A stretch of DNA of 64,000 nucleotides from contig PDTL01000026.1 of the NCBI GenBank assembly GCA_002748835.1, positions 14,330-78,329 on the forward strand, read 5' to 3'. Source of the DNA: Deltaproteobacteria bacterium. GTDB lineage: Bacteria; Desulfobacterota; Desulfobacteria; Desulfobacterales; GCA-2748835. Below the pieces are notes generated by a model. That model was not told the DNA's origin, did no database searches, and worked only from the letters and a program-made list of their open reading frames with translations. A program made the translations under genes and the position numbers. Below are positions 42,726-51,492 of the stretch, one piece after another (position 1 is the first letter of the stretch; the number at the start of each line of letters is the position of its first letter).

Positions 42726-42860
42726 TGCGTTTTGTGCCGGCATTGAGGCCGGCACACTGTATCGTCTTTTCTTCATTCTGATGATATTAACGCGGTCGGG
42801 CCGACTCCCGAATCGAGAGGGGAGTCGTGCGCGTCCGCGATAACTTATATGGGAGAGACT

Positions 42861-45800
42861 ATGTCCGAAAGCCCTCTGGCATTAAAGCGAATCAGGAAGA
42901 ATTTCGGAGAAAAACGCAAAATTATTGACATGCCGAATCTGATTGGCATGCAACGGGATTCCTACGATCGTTTCCTGCAGGAATCCACCCCGCCTGACAG
43001 ACGCAGGGACATAGGCTTACAGGCTGTATTTAATTCCGTATTCCCCATTACCGATTTTACAGGAAGCGCGTCGCTCGAGTTTGTTTCCTACAGTTTCGGT
43101 GAAGTCAAACACTCCATGGAAGAGTGTATTCACCGGGGCATGACCTACGAGATTTCCGTTCATATCCGGGTCCGTCTGGTGGTTTTCGATGTGGACAAGG
43201 ATGCCGACGTCACCAAGAGTATTCGGGATATCAAGGAACAGGAAATCTATTTCGGCACCATCCCGCGAATGACGCCCAAAGGGACTTTTATTATCAACGG
43301 AACCGAGCGCGTTGTGGTCAGCCAGCTGCACCGGTCATCCGGCGTTTTTTTTGACCATGACAAGGGGAAAACGCATTCGAGTGGAAAGTTGATTTACAGC
43401 GCCCGGGTGATCCCTGTGCGCGGTTCCTGGATTGATCTTGAAATTGACCCGAAGGATACGGTTTATATTCGTATCGACCGGCGACGCAAGTTTCCCATTA
43501 CCATTTTGTTCAAGGCGTTCGGTTACACCACTGAAGATCTCTTGTCCTATTTCTATCAGAAAGAAACCATTCATGTACATGACATGAATTATTTCAAGGT
43601 GTTCAATGAGGAGCACCTGAAAGGTCAGCGCGCCAGTTTTGATGTTGTAGATCCGGAAACCTCTGAGATCATTGTTAAAAAAACACGGTTATTCACCAAA
43701 CGGGCCATTCGTCAGCTCAAGACATCCGGGATCCGGGAGATTCCCATTGCAGTGGAAGACCTGGAAGAACGCGCTTTTGCCACCACCATCCGGGACGAAT
43801 CCACCGGTGAGGTTCTGGCCAAGGCAGGCAGTCTTATCGATCAGGACTGCCTGGACCGGATCAATGCTGCCGGTATTGAAAAATTTGATATTCTGTTTGT
43901 CGAAGGTGCGTTCAGCTCCGATTCTATCCGAAAAACGCTGGCCGTTGACAAGGTGGATTCCCGGGAAGAAGCGCTCATCGAAATATACCGCCGGCTCCGG
44001 CCCGGTAACCCGGCGACACCGGAAGTGGCGCAGGAATTTGTCGATCACCTGTTTTTCAAACCGGCCTATTATGATCTGTCCGGTGTCGGACGGCTCAAGC
44101 TGAACCACCGTCTGGGCATCTCAACGGAAATCGACGTACGGACCCTCCGGAAAGAAGATATTCTGCTGACAACCCGGACCCTGGTGGAGCTCAGAGATAC
44201 CCAGGGTGTTGTGGATGATATCGACCATTTGGGCAACCGGCGGGTCCGTGCCGTGGGGGAACTGCTGGAAAATCAGTACCGGATCGGTCTGGTGCGCATG
44301 GAGCGTGCGATTAAAGAACGGATGAGCATGCATGAGGTCGATTCACTCATGCCCAATGATCTGGTCAATCCCAAGCCGGTTTCCGCCGTGGTCAAGGAAT
44401 TTTTCGGCACCAGTCAGCTGTCCCAGTTCATGGACCAGACCAACCCGCTGTCAGAGACCACCCACAAACGGCGTTTGAGCGCACTGGGACCGGGCGGCTT
44501 GACCCGTGAACGCGCCGGGTTTGAGGTCCGTGACGTCCATCCTTCGCATTATGGACGGATCTGCCCCATCGAAACACCGGAAGGCCCGAACATTGGGCTC
44601 ATCGTTTCGCTGTGCACCTATGCCCGGGTGAATGACTTTGGCTTTATTGAAACCCCATACCGGGTGGTATCTGATGCGTCGGTTACCTCTGAAATTCGCA
44701 TGCTCAGCGCGTTTGAGGAAAAGGAGCATCCCATTGCCCAGGCCAATGCGCCGCTCAATGATAACAATGCCTTTATCCGCCCGGATGTAGCCTGCCGTGT
44801 GGCCGGTGAATCCGAAATGGTGCGCCGGGAAGATGTGGAGCTGATGGATATTTCGCCGAATCAGCTGGTGAGTGTGTCTGCCTCTCTGATTCCCTTTCTT
44901 GAAAACGATGATGCCAACCGCGCACTCATGGGCTCGAACATGCAGCGGCAGGCGGTTCCGCTGATTCAGGCACAGGCGCCGCTGGTCGGTACGGGTGTGG
45001 AAGCGGTGGTGGCCCGGGATTCGGGTGTGGCTATTGTGGCGCAGGCAGACGGGGAAGTGGTGTTTGTCGATGCTTCCCGGATCGTGATCAAGCACAACAC
45101 CATGGATCATCCGGTGAGCGTGCACGCCCTGTCGAAGTTTACCCGGTCAAACCAGAATACCTGCTTCAACCACCGGCCCATTGTTCAAAAAGGCCAGCAC
45201 GTGAAGGCCGGCGAAGTCATCGCGGATGGCCCGTCCACGGAAAAAGGTGAATTGGCCTTGGGAAAAAATGTGACGGTCGCCTTCATGCCCTGGGGGGGGT
45301 ACAACTTTGAGGACTCCATCCTGGTCAGTGAGCGGCTGGTTCAGGACGGGGTCTACACCTCGATCCATATCGAAGAGTTTGAGGTGGTTGCTAGGGACAC
45401 CAAGCTCGGGAAAGAAGAGATTACACGGGATATCCCCAATGTGGGCGAGGAAGCGTTAAAAGATCTGGATGACAGCGGTATTATCCGGCTGGGTGCGGAT
45501 GTACGGCCCAGTGATATTCTCGTGGGTAAGATTACACCGAAGAGTGAAACCCAGCTGTCACCGGAAGAAAAACTGCTTCGGGCCATCTTCGGGGAAAAAG
45601 CCGGTGATGTGAAAGATACATCCCTCCGGGTGCCGCCCGGTGTTGAAGGCGTGGTCGTTGATGTGAAGGTCTTTTCCCGCAAGGGGGTCGATAAGGACGA
45701 CCGGACCCGCTACATCGAAGACCTTGAGATCATCGCCATGGAACAGACCCGCGATGATGAGATTCGGATTATTGACGAGACGGCCAAAGATCAGCTGAAG

Positions 45801-47054
45801 AATCTGCTTGTGGGCCAGCCCTGCGCGGCGCCGTTGAAAAAGGGCCGCAAGCAGCTCCTGGAAGAAGGGGAGACCCTCACAGCTGAACGCATCGATGCTT
45901 CACCGGTCGGGCATTTGGAAGGCCTGGTGCTGAAGGATCCTGAGCTTACCCGCAAGGTGGATGAAATCATCGACGCCTATCGTGATCAGGTGGACAAGTG
46001 CCGCCGTAAGTTCGAAGATCAGGTGTCCCGGTTTGAGAAAGGGGATGACCTGCCACCGGGCGTGATCAAGATGATCAAGGTTTATGTGGCCATGAAGCGG
46101 ATCTTGTCCGTGGGTGACAAAATGGCCGGCCGTCACGGAAACAAAGGGGTCGTCTCCCGCATCCTGCCCGTGGAAGACCTGCCGTACTTTGAAGACGGTA
46201 CGCCGGTGGACATGGTGCTGAACCCGCTGGGGGTGCCCTCCCGTATGAACGTGGGCCAGATTCTCGAGATCCATCTGGGTCGGGCTGCCAAGGCGCTGGG
46301 AACGCAGATTCAGCAGATGATCGACGACCAGAAGGCCGAGGCGCTGCGGGAAAAACTCAAACGCATCTTCACCACCCCGCGTGTTATTAAGATTGAAAAT
46401 GACATCAGCGGTGAAGTCAAATATGACTATGCCGCGCAGTATACGGAAACCATTCCCCTGGATCCGGAAGAAACGGTCGACAAAGAACTGGTCTCCATGA
46501 TCGACGGGTGGGATGATGAAACTCTGTTTGCCTTTGCCGGATTCTACCGCAATGGCGTTCACATGGCCACACCGGTATTTGACGGTGCCAGGGAAGATTA
46601 TATCAAGTCTCTCCTTGCCTATGCCGGCGTGTCCAGGACCGGTCAGGCCGTCTTGTATGACGGTCGTACCGGCGAGCCGTTTGACGGCAGGATCACTGTG
46701 GGGACCATGTACGTCCTCAAGCTTCACCACCTGGTGGACGACAAACTGCATGCCCGTTCCATCGGTCCCTACTCACTGGTGACCCAGCAGCCGCTCGGCG
46801 GTAAGGCCCAGTTCGGCGGCCAGCGTCTCGGCGAGATGGAGGTTTGGGCTATGGAAGCCTATGGGGCCGCTTATGCCCTGCAGGAGTTCATTACCGTGAA
46901 GTCGGATGACATGGCTGGTCGTACCCGAATGTATGAAAAGATCGTGAAGGGACAGAACGTTCTGGAACCCGGGCTGCCTGAATCTTTCAAAGTACTGACC
47001 AAGGAACTGCAGGCCCTGGGCTTGGATGTCAACCTCATTGAAGGCGATCAATAA
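42861..47054 (+). CDS. rpoB: RNA polymerase beta subunit
   Basis: [34 protein letters not shown]; start 42849 or 42861. Confidence 0.98.
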
Positions 47055-47061
47055 GGAGAAC

Positions 47062-50000
47062 ATGTTGGAAACCTTATACGATTTTTTTGCCAAACCGATT
47101 GATCCGAAAAAATACGCCGGTGTGCAGATTGCACTGGCATCCTCAGAGCAGATCCGGACCTGGTCCCATGGTGAGATTACCAAGCCTGAAACCATCAATT
47201 ACCGGACGTTCAAGCCGGAACGCGATGGTCTGTTCTGCGCAAAGATATTCGGTCCCACAAAGGACTATGAGTGTAACTGCGGTAAGTATAAGCGTATGAA
47301 ACACCGCGGTGTCGTGTGTGAAAAATGCGGTGTGGAGGTGATTCAGTCAAAGGTGCGGCGCGAAAGGCTGGCACATATAGAACTGGCTTCTCCGGTTTCC
47401 CACATCTGGTTTTTGAAGAGTCTTCCAAGCAAGATTGGCAACCTTCTCGACCTTACCCTGAAGAATCTCGAACGGGTGCTCTATTTTGACAGTTATATTG
47501 TCATGGATCCAAAAGAAACCGGGCTGTCAAAATATCAGCTGCTGTCAGATGAAAAATATCACGATGCCCTGGAACTCTATGGCCCCACCTTCACTGCGGG
47601 TATTGGCGCCGAAGCCATCCAGGTACTTCTTGAAGAGCTGGATCTGGAAGCCATCTACGTGGAGCTCCGGGAAGAGCTTCAGAAAACCAATTCCACGGCA
47701 AAACGTCAGAAGCTGGCAAAACGCCTGAAGATCGTTGACGCCTTCAGAAATTCGCCGGTGGATCCGGTCTGGATGATTATGAGCACGGTCCCGGTACTGC
47801 CGCCGGATCTTCGGCCCCTGGTACCGCTGGAAGGCGGCCGTTTTGCCACATCTGACCTCAACGACCTCTACCGCCGGGTGATTAACCGGAACAACCGTCT
47901 GAAACGGTTGGTCGACCTGAAAGCCCCGGATATCATTGTCCGCAACGAAAAACGGATGCTCCAGGAAGCCGTGGATGTGCTCTTTGACAATGGCCGCCAT
48001 GGCCGGGTGGTGACGGGTACCAACAAGCGGCCGCTCAAGTCGCTGAGTGACTCTCTGAAAGGCAAGCAGGGGCGTTTCCGGCAGAATCTCCTTGGTAAAC
48101 GTGTGGATTATTCCGGTCGTACCGTTATTACCGTCGGTCCGAATTTGCGCCTTCATCAGTGCGGGATTCCGAAAAAAATGGCCCTTGAGCTGTTCAAACC
48201 GTTCATCTACCATAATCTGGAGCAGAACGGGTTTGTCTCCACAGTAAAAAGCGCCAAGAAAATGGTCGAGCGGGAAACCCCCGAGGTCTGGGATGCCTTG
48301 GATCAGGTGGTACGCGAATATCCGGTGCTTCTGAACCGTGCGCCGACCCTTCACCGGCTGGGGATTCAGGCGTTTGAACCGCTCTTGATCGAGGGAAAGG
48401 CGATCCAGCTGCATCCCCTGGTCTGTACGGCATTTAACGCGGACTTTGACGGTGACCAGATGGCGGTCCATCTGCCCCTTTCCATTGAGGCTCAGATCGA
48501 AGCCCGGGTGCTCATGCTGGCCAGTAACAATATCCTGTCACCGGCCAATGGCCAGCCAATTATTGTACCGACACAGGATATCGTTCTTGGCATTTACTAC
48601 ATGACCCGGTCACTGGACACACCGGAACCGGAACGCCGCCGGTTTTCCAGCTGTGCCGAGGCCCGTATCGCGTTTGACGCCAATGAAGTTTCCCTGCACA
48701 GTCAGGTCTATGTCCGTATCGAGGGTGAGCTGGTGGAAACCACCATCGGCCGCATTCTGCTGTGGGAGATCATTCCCTCTGAGACCCTCTCCAATTTCGA
48801 GCATATCACGGTCGATACCCGTGCGGATGCGGAACAGGTGTATGCGGACCTTAAAAAGGGGATGAGCTTCAAATCGGCTGTCGAAAAATACGCTGTGTCT
48901 GATGACAAGGCGATGGCCGGCGCCATCGGCTGGCTGAAAAAGAATGAACTCCGCGCCGTGTTCGGTTTCAGTGAAATGGATGCGGAGGCCCTGCTGGCTA
49001 TTGCCCCCAACCGACTGAGTTCGATCCTGAAAATCAGGGGAAAATATCATATTTTCCGGGTGGTTGAGACAAGAAATGAGATCCCGTTCAAACTCGTTAA
49101 TCAGGTGATGGACAAGGGTGCGCTTCGTAAGCTGGTTGACTATGCCTATCGTGAACTCGGCCCGAAATCCACGGTGATCCTGGCCGACCGCCTGAAAGAT
49201 CTCGGTTACCTGTATTCGACCCGGGGCGGTTTGTCCATTTGTATTGATGATATGATCATTCCGGAAACAAAATGGGATATTGTCGCATCTGCCCGTCAGA
49301 AGGTGTCTGAAATCGGTCGCCAGTATGTGGAAGGCCTGATTACCCAGGGGGAAAAATACAACAAGGTGATCGATATCTGGGCCAAGTCAACAGATGACAT
49401 TGCCACTGAAATGATGAAGGGGATGGAAAATCCGCCGATGCTTAACGAAGCCGATGTCGACGCGGACCGGCCGGTTCAGCTCCGGGATTCCATCAACGCG
49501 ATTTTTATGATGGCAGACTCTGGGGCCAGGGGAAGTAAGGACCAGATGCGTCAGCTGGCCGGGATGCGCGGCTTGATGGCCAAACCTTCTGGTGAGATTA
49601 TCGAAGAGCCGATTACCGCCAACTTCCGTGAAGGACTCACGGTTCTCCAGTATTTCGTCTCCACCCACGGGGCCCGTAAAGGACTGGCAGATACGGCGCT
49701 CAAGACCGCCAACTCCGGTTACCTGACCCGCCGTCTTGCCGATGTTGCCCAGGATTGTGTGGTATCGGAGCAGGACTGCGGCACCACCCTGGGCATCGAG
49801 GTGGAAGCGCTGACCGAGGGCGGGGAAGTGATTCAGCAGCTTGGAGAACGGGTGCTCGGCCGGTATACACTGGAAACCGTATATGACCCGTTTACCGATG
49901 AGCCGATCATTCTTCCCAATGTGGAAATTGACGAAAAAAACCTGGCAAAGATCGAAGAATCCGGTATCACCAGCCTTCGGATTCGGTCGGTGTTGACGTG

Positions 50001-51492
50001 TAATGCAAAAGTGGGTGTCTGCGCCCGCTGCTACGGCCGGGACCTGGCGCACGGAAAGCGCGTAGAGGTCGGCCAGGCGGTGGGGATTCTCGCTGCGCAG
50101 TCCATTGGCGAGCCAGGAACCCAGTTGACCATGCGGACCTTCCATATCGGCGGTACGGCCAGCCGGCGGGTCGAGCAGGCGGATATCAAGGCCCGCGTGG
50201 AAGGGACCATCAAGTATCTGGATGACCTGCACACCATCATCAACAAGGAAGGCGAGCGGATCGTCATGAACCGCCGCGGCGGTGAGTTTGCCATTCTCAG
50301 TGAAACCGGCAGGGAACGTGAACGCTGCCAGGTGATTTACGGTTCGCATCTGCTGGTCGAAGACGGCGCGCGTGTATCTGTCGGAGAGCTTCTCTGCGTA
50401 TGGGATCCGTTTACCACACCGATTATTACAGAAGTCTCGGGTACCATCAAATACGGCGACATTGTTGCCGGAAAAACCATGCAGGAAAAGATCGACCCGG
50501 TCACGGGCAAGGCCAGCCGCGCCATCATCGAGTCCAAAGTCGGTGATGTCCGGCCGCGGATTTCAATCAAGGACGCATCCAATCGGACCGCGACCCTGCC
50601 GGATTCTTCTGCACCGGCTCGGTATCATCTGCCGGTGGAAGCGGTCCTCATGGTTGAAGAGCATGATTCGGTCCAGGCCGGTGATGCCATTGCCCGTCTG
50701 CCACGGGCGACCACCAAGACCAAGGACATCACCGGCGGGCTTCCGCGGGTTGCAGAACTGTTCGAGGTGCGCAAACCTAAGGTGACGTCGGTGTTGAGTG
50801 AGATTGACGGATATGTCTCCATCTCCAAAGGGACCAAAGGCAAGCAGCGGGTGGTTATCCATCCAGTGGATGAGCAGGGAGACAAGAAAGAATACCTGAT
50901 TCCCCGGGGCAAGCATCTGAATGTGTATGAAGGGGATTATGTCAAGGCCGGGGATCAGCTGGTTGCCGGGAGTGCAAACCCGCAGGATATTTTAAATATT
51001 AAAGGTGATATCGCACTGGCCAGCTATCTGGTGGATGAGGTTCAGGAAGTGTATCGCCTGCAGGGGGTCCGCATCAACGACAAGCACATCGAAGTGATTG
51101 TGCGCCAGATGATGCGCCGGGTGAAAATCACAGATGTGGGTGACACGGATCTGATTGTAGAAGAACAGGTGGATAAACTCCATTTTGCAGAAGTCAACCG
51201 CAAGGTGGTGGCTGAAGGCGGAAGACCGGCAACCGGTGAACCGCTGATCCTCGGGATCACGAAAGCATCGCTGGCCACGGATAGTTTTATTTCCGCAGCA
51301 TCCTTTCAGGAGACCACCAAGGTGCTGACTGATGCGAGTATCCGTGGTGATATCGATACACTGCGCGGGTTGAAGGAAAACGTGATCATGGGGCGGCTGA
51401 TACCGGCAGGTACCGGTATCCGGCAGTATCATCAGGTTGGAATACAGGCCGATGTCGAGGCGATAGAACCGATTCCGGATGGACTCGACTAA
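47062..51492 (+). CDS. rpoC: RNA polymerase beta' subunit with a parvulin-like insertion
   Basis: Zn ribbon, [20 protein letters not shown]; AAGGAG before ATG 47062. Confidence 0.98.

Follow-up and report, generated by a model that had tools for sequence, protein, structure and literature searches.

A parvulin-fold insertion in the β' subunit of RNA polymerase in the Desulfobacterales

Introduction

Why should the β' subunit of a bacterial RNA polymerase contain a segment that resembles a peptidyl-prolyl isomerase? The question is raised by the rpoC gene of a Deltaproteobacteria bacterium of the order Desulfobacterales, carried on a stretch of 64,000 nucleotides of contig PDTL01000026.1 (henceforth the window, i.e. 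the whole stretch that was analysed). A reading of the letters without database searches (henceforth the sequence-only reading) had described a parvulin-like segment between two normally adjacent parts of β', and had proposed a tethered, possibly degenerate prolyl isomerase or binding module. We find that the segment is a parvulin-fold, lineage-specific insertion of β', an assignment that we regard as secure. Its fold, its position in the subunit, its order-wide distribution, the purifying selection that acts on it and its repeated clean losses are described below. In our view it is probably a non-catalytic, folded surface module, useful but dispensable, that goes back to one parvulin insertion and was kept in nearly all descendants.

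Bacterial RNA polymerases are set apart from each other mainly by lineage-specific insertions, and according to recent surveys those of β' belong almost all to one fold class, HABAS. A parvulin at another site, present throughout an order of environmentally important sulfate reducers, widens the range of folds that are known to have been recruited by the polymerase.

Results

An extra segment within β'

The gene product is β', as is evident from the match to TIGR02386 (1747 bits) and from the five Pfam Rpb1 domains that were matched. Residues are numbered throughout on the mechanically predicted open reading frame (ORF; 47026-51492, 1488 aa), and all features of the window given here lie on the forward (+) strand. 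The insertion comprises residues S585-E685, i.e. 101 aa (48778..49080). The sequence-only reading had placed 100 residues at 48778-49077; its sequence was exact and lay inside the open frame, but the end was one codon short.

The flanks on both sides are ordinary β' sequence. The N-terminal flank (residues 575-584; 48748..48777) aligns with GRALLFQVVP of solved β' chains, and nine of its ten columns are invariant in 76 homologues, the tenth being I in 75 of the 76. The C-terminal flank IPFKLVNQ (residues 686-693; 49081..49104) opens with I686, the equivalent of E. coli β' L587. When a query of 433 aa was compared with solved structures, the 60 β' chains listed matched it in two stretches, and the residues of the insert were unaligned in the two printed alignments as well as in the listed E. 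coli coordinates, where chain residues 587-787 pair with query residues 228-433. E. coli β' presumably has about two residues where the protein of the window has 101; relatives without the insert have 2-8 residues at the site, the count varying with the flank setting. Judged from these alignments, the segment is an in-frame addition between segments that are conserved in bacterial β'.

Parvulin sequence signature and predicted fold

The isolated piece of 112 aa matched Pfam PF00639 with 29.9 bits (cut-off 21.7, E 1.1e-6), and the match stayed above the cut-off within the whole β' protein (23.9 bits). With the single sequence, phmmer against the PDB sequences gave the PpiC structure 3gpk and B. 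subtilis PrsA at E ~5e-5, and a profile of 14 sequences gave PrsA (6vj4 and 1zk6) at E 2e-9. In NCBIfam the piece matched only peptidyl-prolyl isomerase models, the best being NF000809 (E 1.6e-5, far below its full-length cut-off). In the Pfam/NCBIfam scans of the piece, the only families at E <= 0.01 were peptidyl-prolyl isomerases and no intein family was found; two further Pfam matches, at E ~0.1, are at chance level.

The fold was predicted with AlphaFold2 from the 14-row alignment, for 134 residues including flanks. The mean predicted local distance difference test score (pLDDT) of the model was 76; in blocks of ten residues the domain scored 81-91 in seven of nine blocks, and the two remaining blocks scored 70 and 56. 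The elements follow one another as β-α-α-α-β-α-α-β-β, with strands at model positions 12-22, 59-63, 94-96 and 99-111 and helices at 25-36, 41-48, 51-55, 65-72 and 76-83, i.e. a four-stranded sheet with flanking helices as in parvulins. The long terminal strands (12-22 and 99-111) begin and finish where the domain joins β', which is what an inserted domain should show. A Foldseek search of the PDB with this model returned 46 matches at E <= 1e-3, and the identifiable rows were all parvulin-domain proteins (PrsA, PpiC, Par14, SurA, PpiD, NmPin, Par10, Ess1 and Pin1), with a probability of 1.00 for PrsA, PpiC, Par14, SurA, PpiD and Pin1. The best single-domain matches, 3gpk, 3ui4 and 1zk6, had target TM-scores of 0.75-0.83 at a root mean square deviation of 2.3 Å. 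In other words, the assignment made by the sequence-only reading was upheld by the hidden Markov model (HMM) of Rotamase, by the profile and by the predicted topology.

Two other structural classes do not fit. The fold is that of a parvulin and not the barrel-sandwich hybrid of HABAS domains or the BEAN fold (Alvarez-Carreno et al. 2024), and the HABAS-like Pfam matches in β' of the window lie elsewhere, at residues 1249-1317. In the model the gap between β1 (12-22) and α1 (25-36) is two residues, and no WW domain was found in the Pfam scan of β' of the window. The lack of a long basic loop behind β1 sets the domain apart from the phospho-specific parvulins of the Pin1 type.

Distribution within and outside the order

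A word-index protein search with residues 575-700 returned 27 proteins, all of them β' with the same insertion. Genomes were then surveyed by whole-genome searches with the 14-row profile. In a sample of one genome per family of the order of the window (41 genomes), 34 had a full-length match within an ORF of about 900-1560 aa, two of these ORFs being cut near 905 aa; one genome (G001) carries the insert in pieces with frame breaks, two (G007 and G020) have β' without the insert, and in four no rpoC was found. A larger sample, nominally of the class, consisted of 151 genomes all labelled with the same order. Here the insert was present in 143 of 151, i.e. in 143 of the 147 genomes with a detectable rpoC; the eight genomes without a match were three of family f53 and G059, which have β' without the insert, and four in which no rpoC was found.

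The phylum sample contained 201 genomes, seven of the order (the window included) and 194 others. All seven of the former carry the insert, and none of the 194 genomes outside the order gave a full-length insert match with the 14-row profile. The three outgroup β' ORFs listed (1381-1388 aa) matched in the C-terminal flank only; the weakest true insert match scored 69.9 bits, and the 265 matches beyond those listed were weaker than E 2e-7. The survey of RpoC across Desulfobacterota that the sequence-only reading had called for gives 143/147 within the order and 0/194 outside, and the insertion is an order-wide trait that is not peculiar to the genome of the window.

A scan of named records confirmed 180 stretches, of which 80 were kept, and the titles name Desulfobacterales taxa; among the titled carriers are Desulfonema limicola, Desulfosudis oleivorans, Desulfocicer vacuolatum, Desulfamplus, Desulfobacterium and Ca. 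Desulfatibia. We note that five records titled 'Pseudomonadota bacterium' (L014, L028, L039, L048 and L063) also carry the insert. In the tree described below four of these β' fall inside the Desulfobacterales clade, the fifth (L048) being too short for the tree. This placement suggests that the Pseudomonadota labels are out of date or mistaken.

A profile search of 1.84 billion representative sequences gave seven matches at E <= 1e-30, all of them fragments (130-385 aa) of the same type of β'. The same insertion was also sought elsewhere: eleven of the longest proteins among the top 150 matches (918-1303 aa) were multi-parvulin or HEAT-parvulin proteins, and none was a polymerase subunit. Since the 50% clustering of this library hides full-length β' variants, the search does not show absence in other phyla.

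These data also bear on the idea that the segment resembles parvulins by chance, results from a chimeric assembly or is a mobile element of the intein kind. The identity to known parvulins is only about 20-26% (Foldseek), and nothing else speaks for such an origin; the HMM, profile and fold searches agree independently, 143 genomes, among which there are single-contig assemblies, have the segment at the same position and in the same frame, and the family scans gave no intein. We give this explanation practically no credence.

One gain and several losses

A tree was computed with FastTree (LG+gamma) from 82 full-length β' sequences with the insert columns removed, and rooted on three genomes of other orders. 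The input consisted of the window and of the 81 loci with a longest ORF of >1300 aa and the NADFDGD motif; shorter loci were not included. The insert-less G007 branches first, the support for the remainder as a clade being 0.149. Its junction, IVPREIPYDLIN, resembles the outgroup junction, ILPEEVPFDLVN, and it is mainly this likeness that suggests a primary absence in G007, the sister position having weak support.

The other insert-less genomes are placed differently. G020 and the three f53 genomes nest in a clade with the insert-bearing L084 and L033 (supports 0.994, 0.963 and 0.978), and their linkers have about seven or eight residues instead of two. In G059 (locus L107, G059:C14:21300-26300) β' shares 92.3% identity over 1393 positions with that of its genus-mate G023 (locus L108, G023:C19:7800-12900), and it reads ...IMPRDNI-KRPEIPF... 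where G023 reads ...IMPQDNILSIRH...ETISKRPEIPF.... By this comparison G059 has undergone a recent, clean, in-frame deletion of the domain core; in other words, it is a natural deletion mutant, and as such a ready design for a functional test of the domain. The tree without the insert columns fits one gain and several losses, i.e. a single lineage and vertical inheritance, and the simplest history suggested by it is one gain early in the order followed by at least three losses.

A separate observation concerns G001 (locus L104, G001:C12:26600-27600), where the frame of the insert region changes twice within about 400 bases, so that three frames are used inside an essential gene. Assembly indel errors are the more likely cause, rather than decay.

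Catalytic positions and the proline pocket

The conservation of single residues was examined in the insert segments of 76 loci. Both histidines of the dual-His motif are present in the window. H593 (48802..48804), at the position of Pin1 His59 and aligned with the H of PrsA SHILV, is His in 62 of the 76, and H675 is His in 66; both occur together in 59. The position of the catalytic Asp/Cys (the D of PrsA GGDLGW, Pin1 Cys113) is Ala in the window (A633; 48922..48924, from the alignments), and the composition of this column is N18 L14 V9 I6 M5 D4 K4 Q4 A3 F3 and others, i.e. Asp in 4/76 and Cys in 0/76. It is the second most variable of the 134 columns (entropy 3.36 bits).

The Ser/Thr positions of the catalytic network lie within the IRGKYH segment (residues 670-675; 49033..49050), which ends in the second His. 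Their equivalence was set by the spacing from this His, following a passage of PMC6468809. Position 670, five residues before H675 and equivalent to Pin1 Thr152, is A31/S30/T3 in the family and Ile in the window; position 672, three residues before it and equivalent to Pin1 Ser154, is G34/D18/E11 and Gly in the window. The statement of the sequence-only reading that the two His are kept and other active-site positions are altered is borne out by these residues (H593 and H675; A633, I670 and G672), and the Ala at the Asp/Cys position, together with the composition of its column, agrees with its description of the domain as possibly degenerate.

The pocket presents another picture. Residues 635-646 (48928..48963), which form the β2 strand and a helix with the hydrophobic positions of the proline pocket, were assessed from the homologue columns and the PrsA alignment. 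Position 642 is F in 70/76 (L in the window) and position 646 is F in 69/76; these two phenylalanines align with the Met and the Phe of PrsA GAMTPEF, i.e. with Pin1 Met130 and Phe134, which are named as pocket residues in part of the text of PMC6468809. L636 is L in 62/76 and L637 is L in 60/76. F615 is kept in 75/76, E641, which is without a counterpart in the PrsA alignments, is kept in 74/76, and G635 and F677 of the fold core are invariant (76/76). To judge from these columns, the catalytic Asp/Cys and Ser/Thr positions are lost or variable and the dual His and the hydrophobic pocket are retained.

It follows that an active prolyl isomerase tethered to RNA polymerase, acting on the polymerase while it is assembled or on transcription factors that dock nearby, is an unlikely reading, and activity in the protein of the window in particular is unlikely from its residues. 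The Pfam Rotamase match, the co-occurrence of both His in most members and the conserved pocket are what one would expect of such an enzyme, and two of the 76 members, L039 and L049, do retain His-Asp-Ser-His. The window, however, has Ala at the Asp/Cys position and Ile and Gly five and three residues before the second His, the Asp/Cys column is hardly conserved at all, and the Pin1 variant Ser154Leu is inactive according to a passage of PMC6468809. Moreover, both His are missing from some members, e.g. the CQYN and RNSN types, and likewise from the longer inserts, those of G064 and G013. Part of the text of PMC7353009 reports that E. coli PpiC co-purifies with NusG, Rho, SuhB and RpoA, so links between parvulins and transcription do exist.

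The two longer inserts deserve a description of their own. In G064 (L106, G064:C7:38400-39350) a low-complexity stretch rich in Ser, Gly and Lys replaces the middle helices and both His are gone. In G013 (L105, G013:C299:3300-4200) the loop before the GLL..EF motif is longer, and Phe and Tyr replace the two His. Both still carry the ...EF...F and ...(I/L)F motifs.

Selective constraint

The ratio of nonsynonymous to synonymous substitution rates (dN/dS) was calculated by the Nei-Gojobori method for the 95 of 3321 pairs that passed the divergence filters. The median dN/dS was 0.23 over the 101 codons of the insert versus 0.075 over 433 flanking codons, and dN was about four times higher in the insert than in the flanks. 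The insert is therefore under purifying selection, looser than that on the core of β'. The net charge of the insert varies among the 76 members, with a median of -6.5 and a range of -14 to +6 (0 in the window). A role in binding nucleic acid was considered and is unlikely, as the mostly acidic character of the insert argues against it.

The main rival of the functional module is a near-neutral passenger in a permissive loop, constrained only to stay folded and harmless, which we regard as a possibility of some substance though clearly short of probable. The three or more independent losses, one of them recent and clean, would be natural for a passenger, as would the variable surface charge, the internal low-complexity expansions, the dN of four times that of the flanks and the fact that the conserved positions belong mostly to the fold core. 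Less natural would be the retention of the domain in 143 of the 147 genomes with rpoC even though clean deletion is possible, a dN/dS well below 1, and the conservation of E641, for which the PrsA alignments show no equivalent.

Position on the enzyme

The insert lies within Pfam Rpb1 domain 3, which we take to be the pore-1 domain. By residue numbers, the scheme of PMC11515920 puts the site just past β'-bD4 and some 12 residues inside the second segment of β'-uD3, and it is not among the seven insertion locations listed there. The insert ends 28 residues before K714, I718 and D721, the equivalents of E. coli K615, I619 and D622, which belong to site 1 of guanosine tetraphosphate (ppGpp; PMC10191844); the KSTVILAD segment that contains them (residues 714-721; 49165..49188) was located by the alignment offset. 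Two further site-1 residues of E. coli, Q623 and Y626, correspond to R722 and D725 in the window.

The boundaries of the NCBIfam matches are conspicuous: rpoC1_cyan was aligned up to residue 592, and rpoC2_cyan and PRK02597 from 685-691. By this homology the insertion site coincides with the loop at which β' is naturally split in cyanobacteria and plastids, which argues for an exposed, permissive site; the evidence for a permissive loop is indirect and consists of this split and of the clean deletion that was tolerated. The location on the polymerase surface that the sequence-only reading proposed gains indirect support from the coincidence with the split. In spinach, according to part of the text of PMC11561172, a loop close to RpoC1's C terminus and the rim helix bind PAP8 and PAP5 in the vicinity of the secondary channel. 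By homology, the parvulin domain would sit on the secondary-channel side, near the rim helices, a location suggested by the split-site homology and the text of the plastid structure paper. The loop is in this way marked as a recurrent place for additional mass near the secondary channel.

A trade-off between the insert and secondary-channel factors was considered and rejected. Blocking of such factors has been proposed for the cyanobacterial SI3, as stated in a passage of PMC10895346. GreA_N was detected in 39 of the 41 relatives and the DksA/TraR finger in all 41; the insert-less G007 and G020 have both, and it is the presence of both factors that speaks against a trade-off.

Discussion

A parvulin module built into β'

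The history that we favour would be the following. A parvulin domain of the PpiC/PrsA type, probably from a gene for a PrsA/SurA-like chaperone, would have entered a surface loop of the pore-1 domain in a single event, early in the Desulfobacterales. In the protein of the window the domain would, from its residues, no longer isomerise prolyl bonds. It may serve as a folded module near the secondary-channel side that binds a partner peptide via the retained pocket, or that buttresses the enzyme. Its contribution would be useful and not essential, as is the case with βi4 and βi9 of E. coli.

Several points weigh against this interpretation. The surface is not conserved (net charge -14 to +6), some members have low-complexity expansions, and the insert was lost at least three times, all of which would be expected of a weakly constrained passenger more than of a specific docking site. 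The conserved residues, i.e. the dual His, the pocket and the Gly, also make up the fold core, so that their conservation may reflect stability alone; both His are reported to stabilise Pin1 in the abstract of PMC6557836. Finally, the His-Asp-Ser-His of L039 and L049 makes activity possible in some lineages.

A more specific proposal is that the polymerase of the Desulfobacterales has a built-in parvulin 'reader', in which the pocket, placed beside the secondary channel, would capture a stretch containing proline, belonging either to a regulator specific to the lineage or to a factor associated with the polymerase, and so tune transcription. We hold this to be improbable. If it were true, binding or the isomer state would tune transcription, and the system would be a bacterial, cis-encoded counterpart of the axis formed by Pin1/Ess1 and RNA polymerase II's C-terminal domain (CTD), in which lineages with His-Asp-Ser-His could still be catalytic.

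Comparison with known systems

The parvulin domain is also an inserted domain in the chaperones PrsA, SurA and PpiD, and the P1 domain of SurA and the parvulin domain of PpiD are not known to have isomerase activity and yet help client binding. The domains of these proteins are the best sequence and fold matches of the insert (PrsA 6vj4 and 1zk6; Foldseek 4wo7, 3gpk, SurA 1m5y and PpiD 2kgj). The host here is, however, the catalytic subunit of RNA polymerase, a protein of the cytoplasm, rather than a chaperone of the envelope; the catalytic Asp is not conserved, and the family has a motif of its own, G-L-L-x-[KR]-x-E-F-x-x-x-F.

That a parvulin can bind peptide without catalysing isomerisation is stated in part of the text of PMC6468809. 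The same text describes the PPIase domain of TbPar42 of Trypanosoma brucei, which has the fold and both His, no activity and weak peptide binding. It is a precedent for an inactive dual-His parvulin fold, but it comes from a eukaryote and retains the Cys, and its fusion partner is an FHA domain; it is not a polymerase insertion.

Among polymerase insertions, β'i6/SI3, βi4, βi9 and those of the HABAS and BEAN types are likewise in-frame extra domains that occur in one lineage and follow its phylogeny. According to a passage of PMC2939025, E. coli can do without βi4 and βi9, and their deletion causes minor defects. The difference is that the fold of the present insertion derives from an enzyme family. 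The RpoC1/RpoC2 split of cyanobacteria and plastids, with the β'-SI1/PAP8 docking surface of plastids, uses the same loop, but there separate proteins dock on a chain that is cut, whereas here the extra domain is a covalent part of an unbroken chain. With the split and the docking of PAPs on one side and the insert on the other, this surface appears to have recruited extra protein mass more than once.

The resemblance to Pin1/Ess1 acting on the CTD of RNA polymerase II is to be understood as an analogy only. In both cases a parvulin-fold module is found at the largest subunit, and Pin1/Ess1 are among the Foldseek matches (E ~7e-4), but the insert has no WW domain, no phosphate-binding basic loop and no catalytic Cys/Asp; no heptad-repeat tail was seen in β' of the window.

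Novelty and annotation

The sequence-only reading did not recall this domain among the described insertions of β', and the literature, as far as it was covered, agrees with this. No description of the insertion was found in the full-text literature, in a search whose reach mostly did not extend to subscription papers and supplements. The terms parvulin, rotamase, PpiC, isomerase and Desulfo are absent from the main text of the 2024 catalogue of β/β' insertions (PMC11515920), the Table S4 of which lists 11 further rare β' architectures, and a look-up of terms in PMC8655204 gave no description of the insertion. A precomputed Pfam match of the Rotamase type exists for 11 of the 27 homologues of the word-index search, so the domain is visible to databases in some members. 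Since only these 11 are annotated and the names in the source records go no further than 'subunit beta'', the feature can easily escape notice.

The rpoC gene and minor observations

The start of rpoC is probably the ATG at 47062, because the homologues open with METLYDFF, the database copy has 1475 aa and AAGGAG precedes this ATG. From this likely true start the gene spans 47062..51492 and encodes 1475 aa. The mechanically predicted ORF overlaps the upstream stop codon at 47054, and the ATG at 47062 sits just past this stop, which would be that of rpoB. The upstream ORF (42849..47054, 1401 aa) was taken from the ORF list with its stop codon checked, and is considered to be rpoB by its position and size.

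In some of the surveyed genomes the frame of the insert is unusually long. In G098 (G098:C159:1012-1413) it is open for 2433 aa, far above the length of β', which could be due to an in-frame read-through or fusion of rpoB and rpoC. The frames in G114 (1604 aa) and G121 (1635 aa) are also long.

Free parvulins occur as well. No small free PpiC-like ORF was found among the profile matches in the genome of the window, which has at least two other ORFs with a parvulin domain, of 373 and 641 aa (G000:C7:23205-23495 and G000:C19:74849-75085); these sizes are typical of SurA/PrsA-like and PpiD-like proteins. In the large profile search, the proteins P0037, P0089, P0157 and P0179 (1039-1303 aa) were noted as having four or five tandem parvulin domains and as unrelated to polymerase, P0179 being described as HEAT repeats with two parvulin domains.

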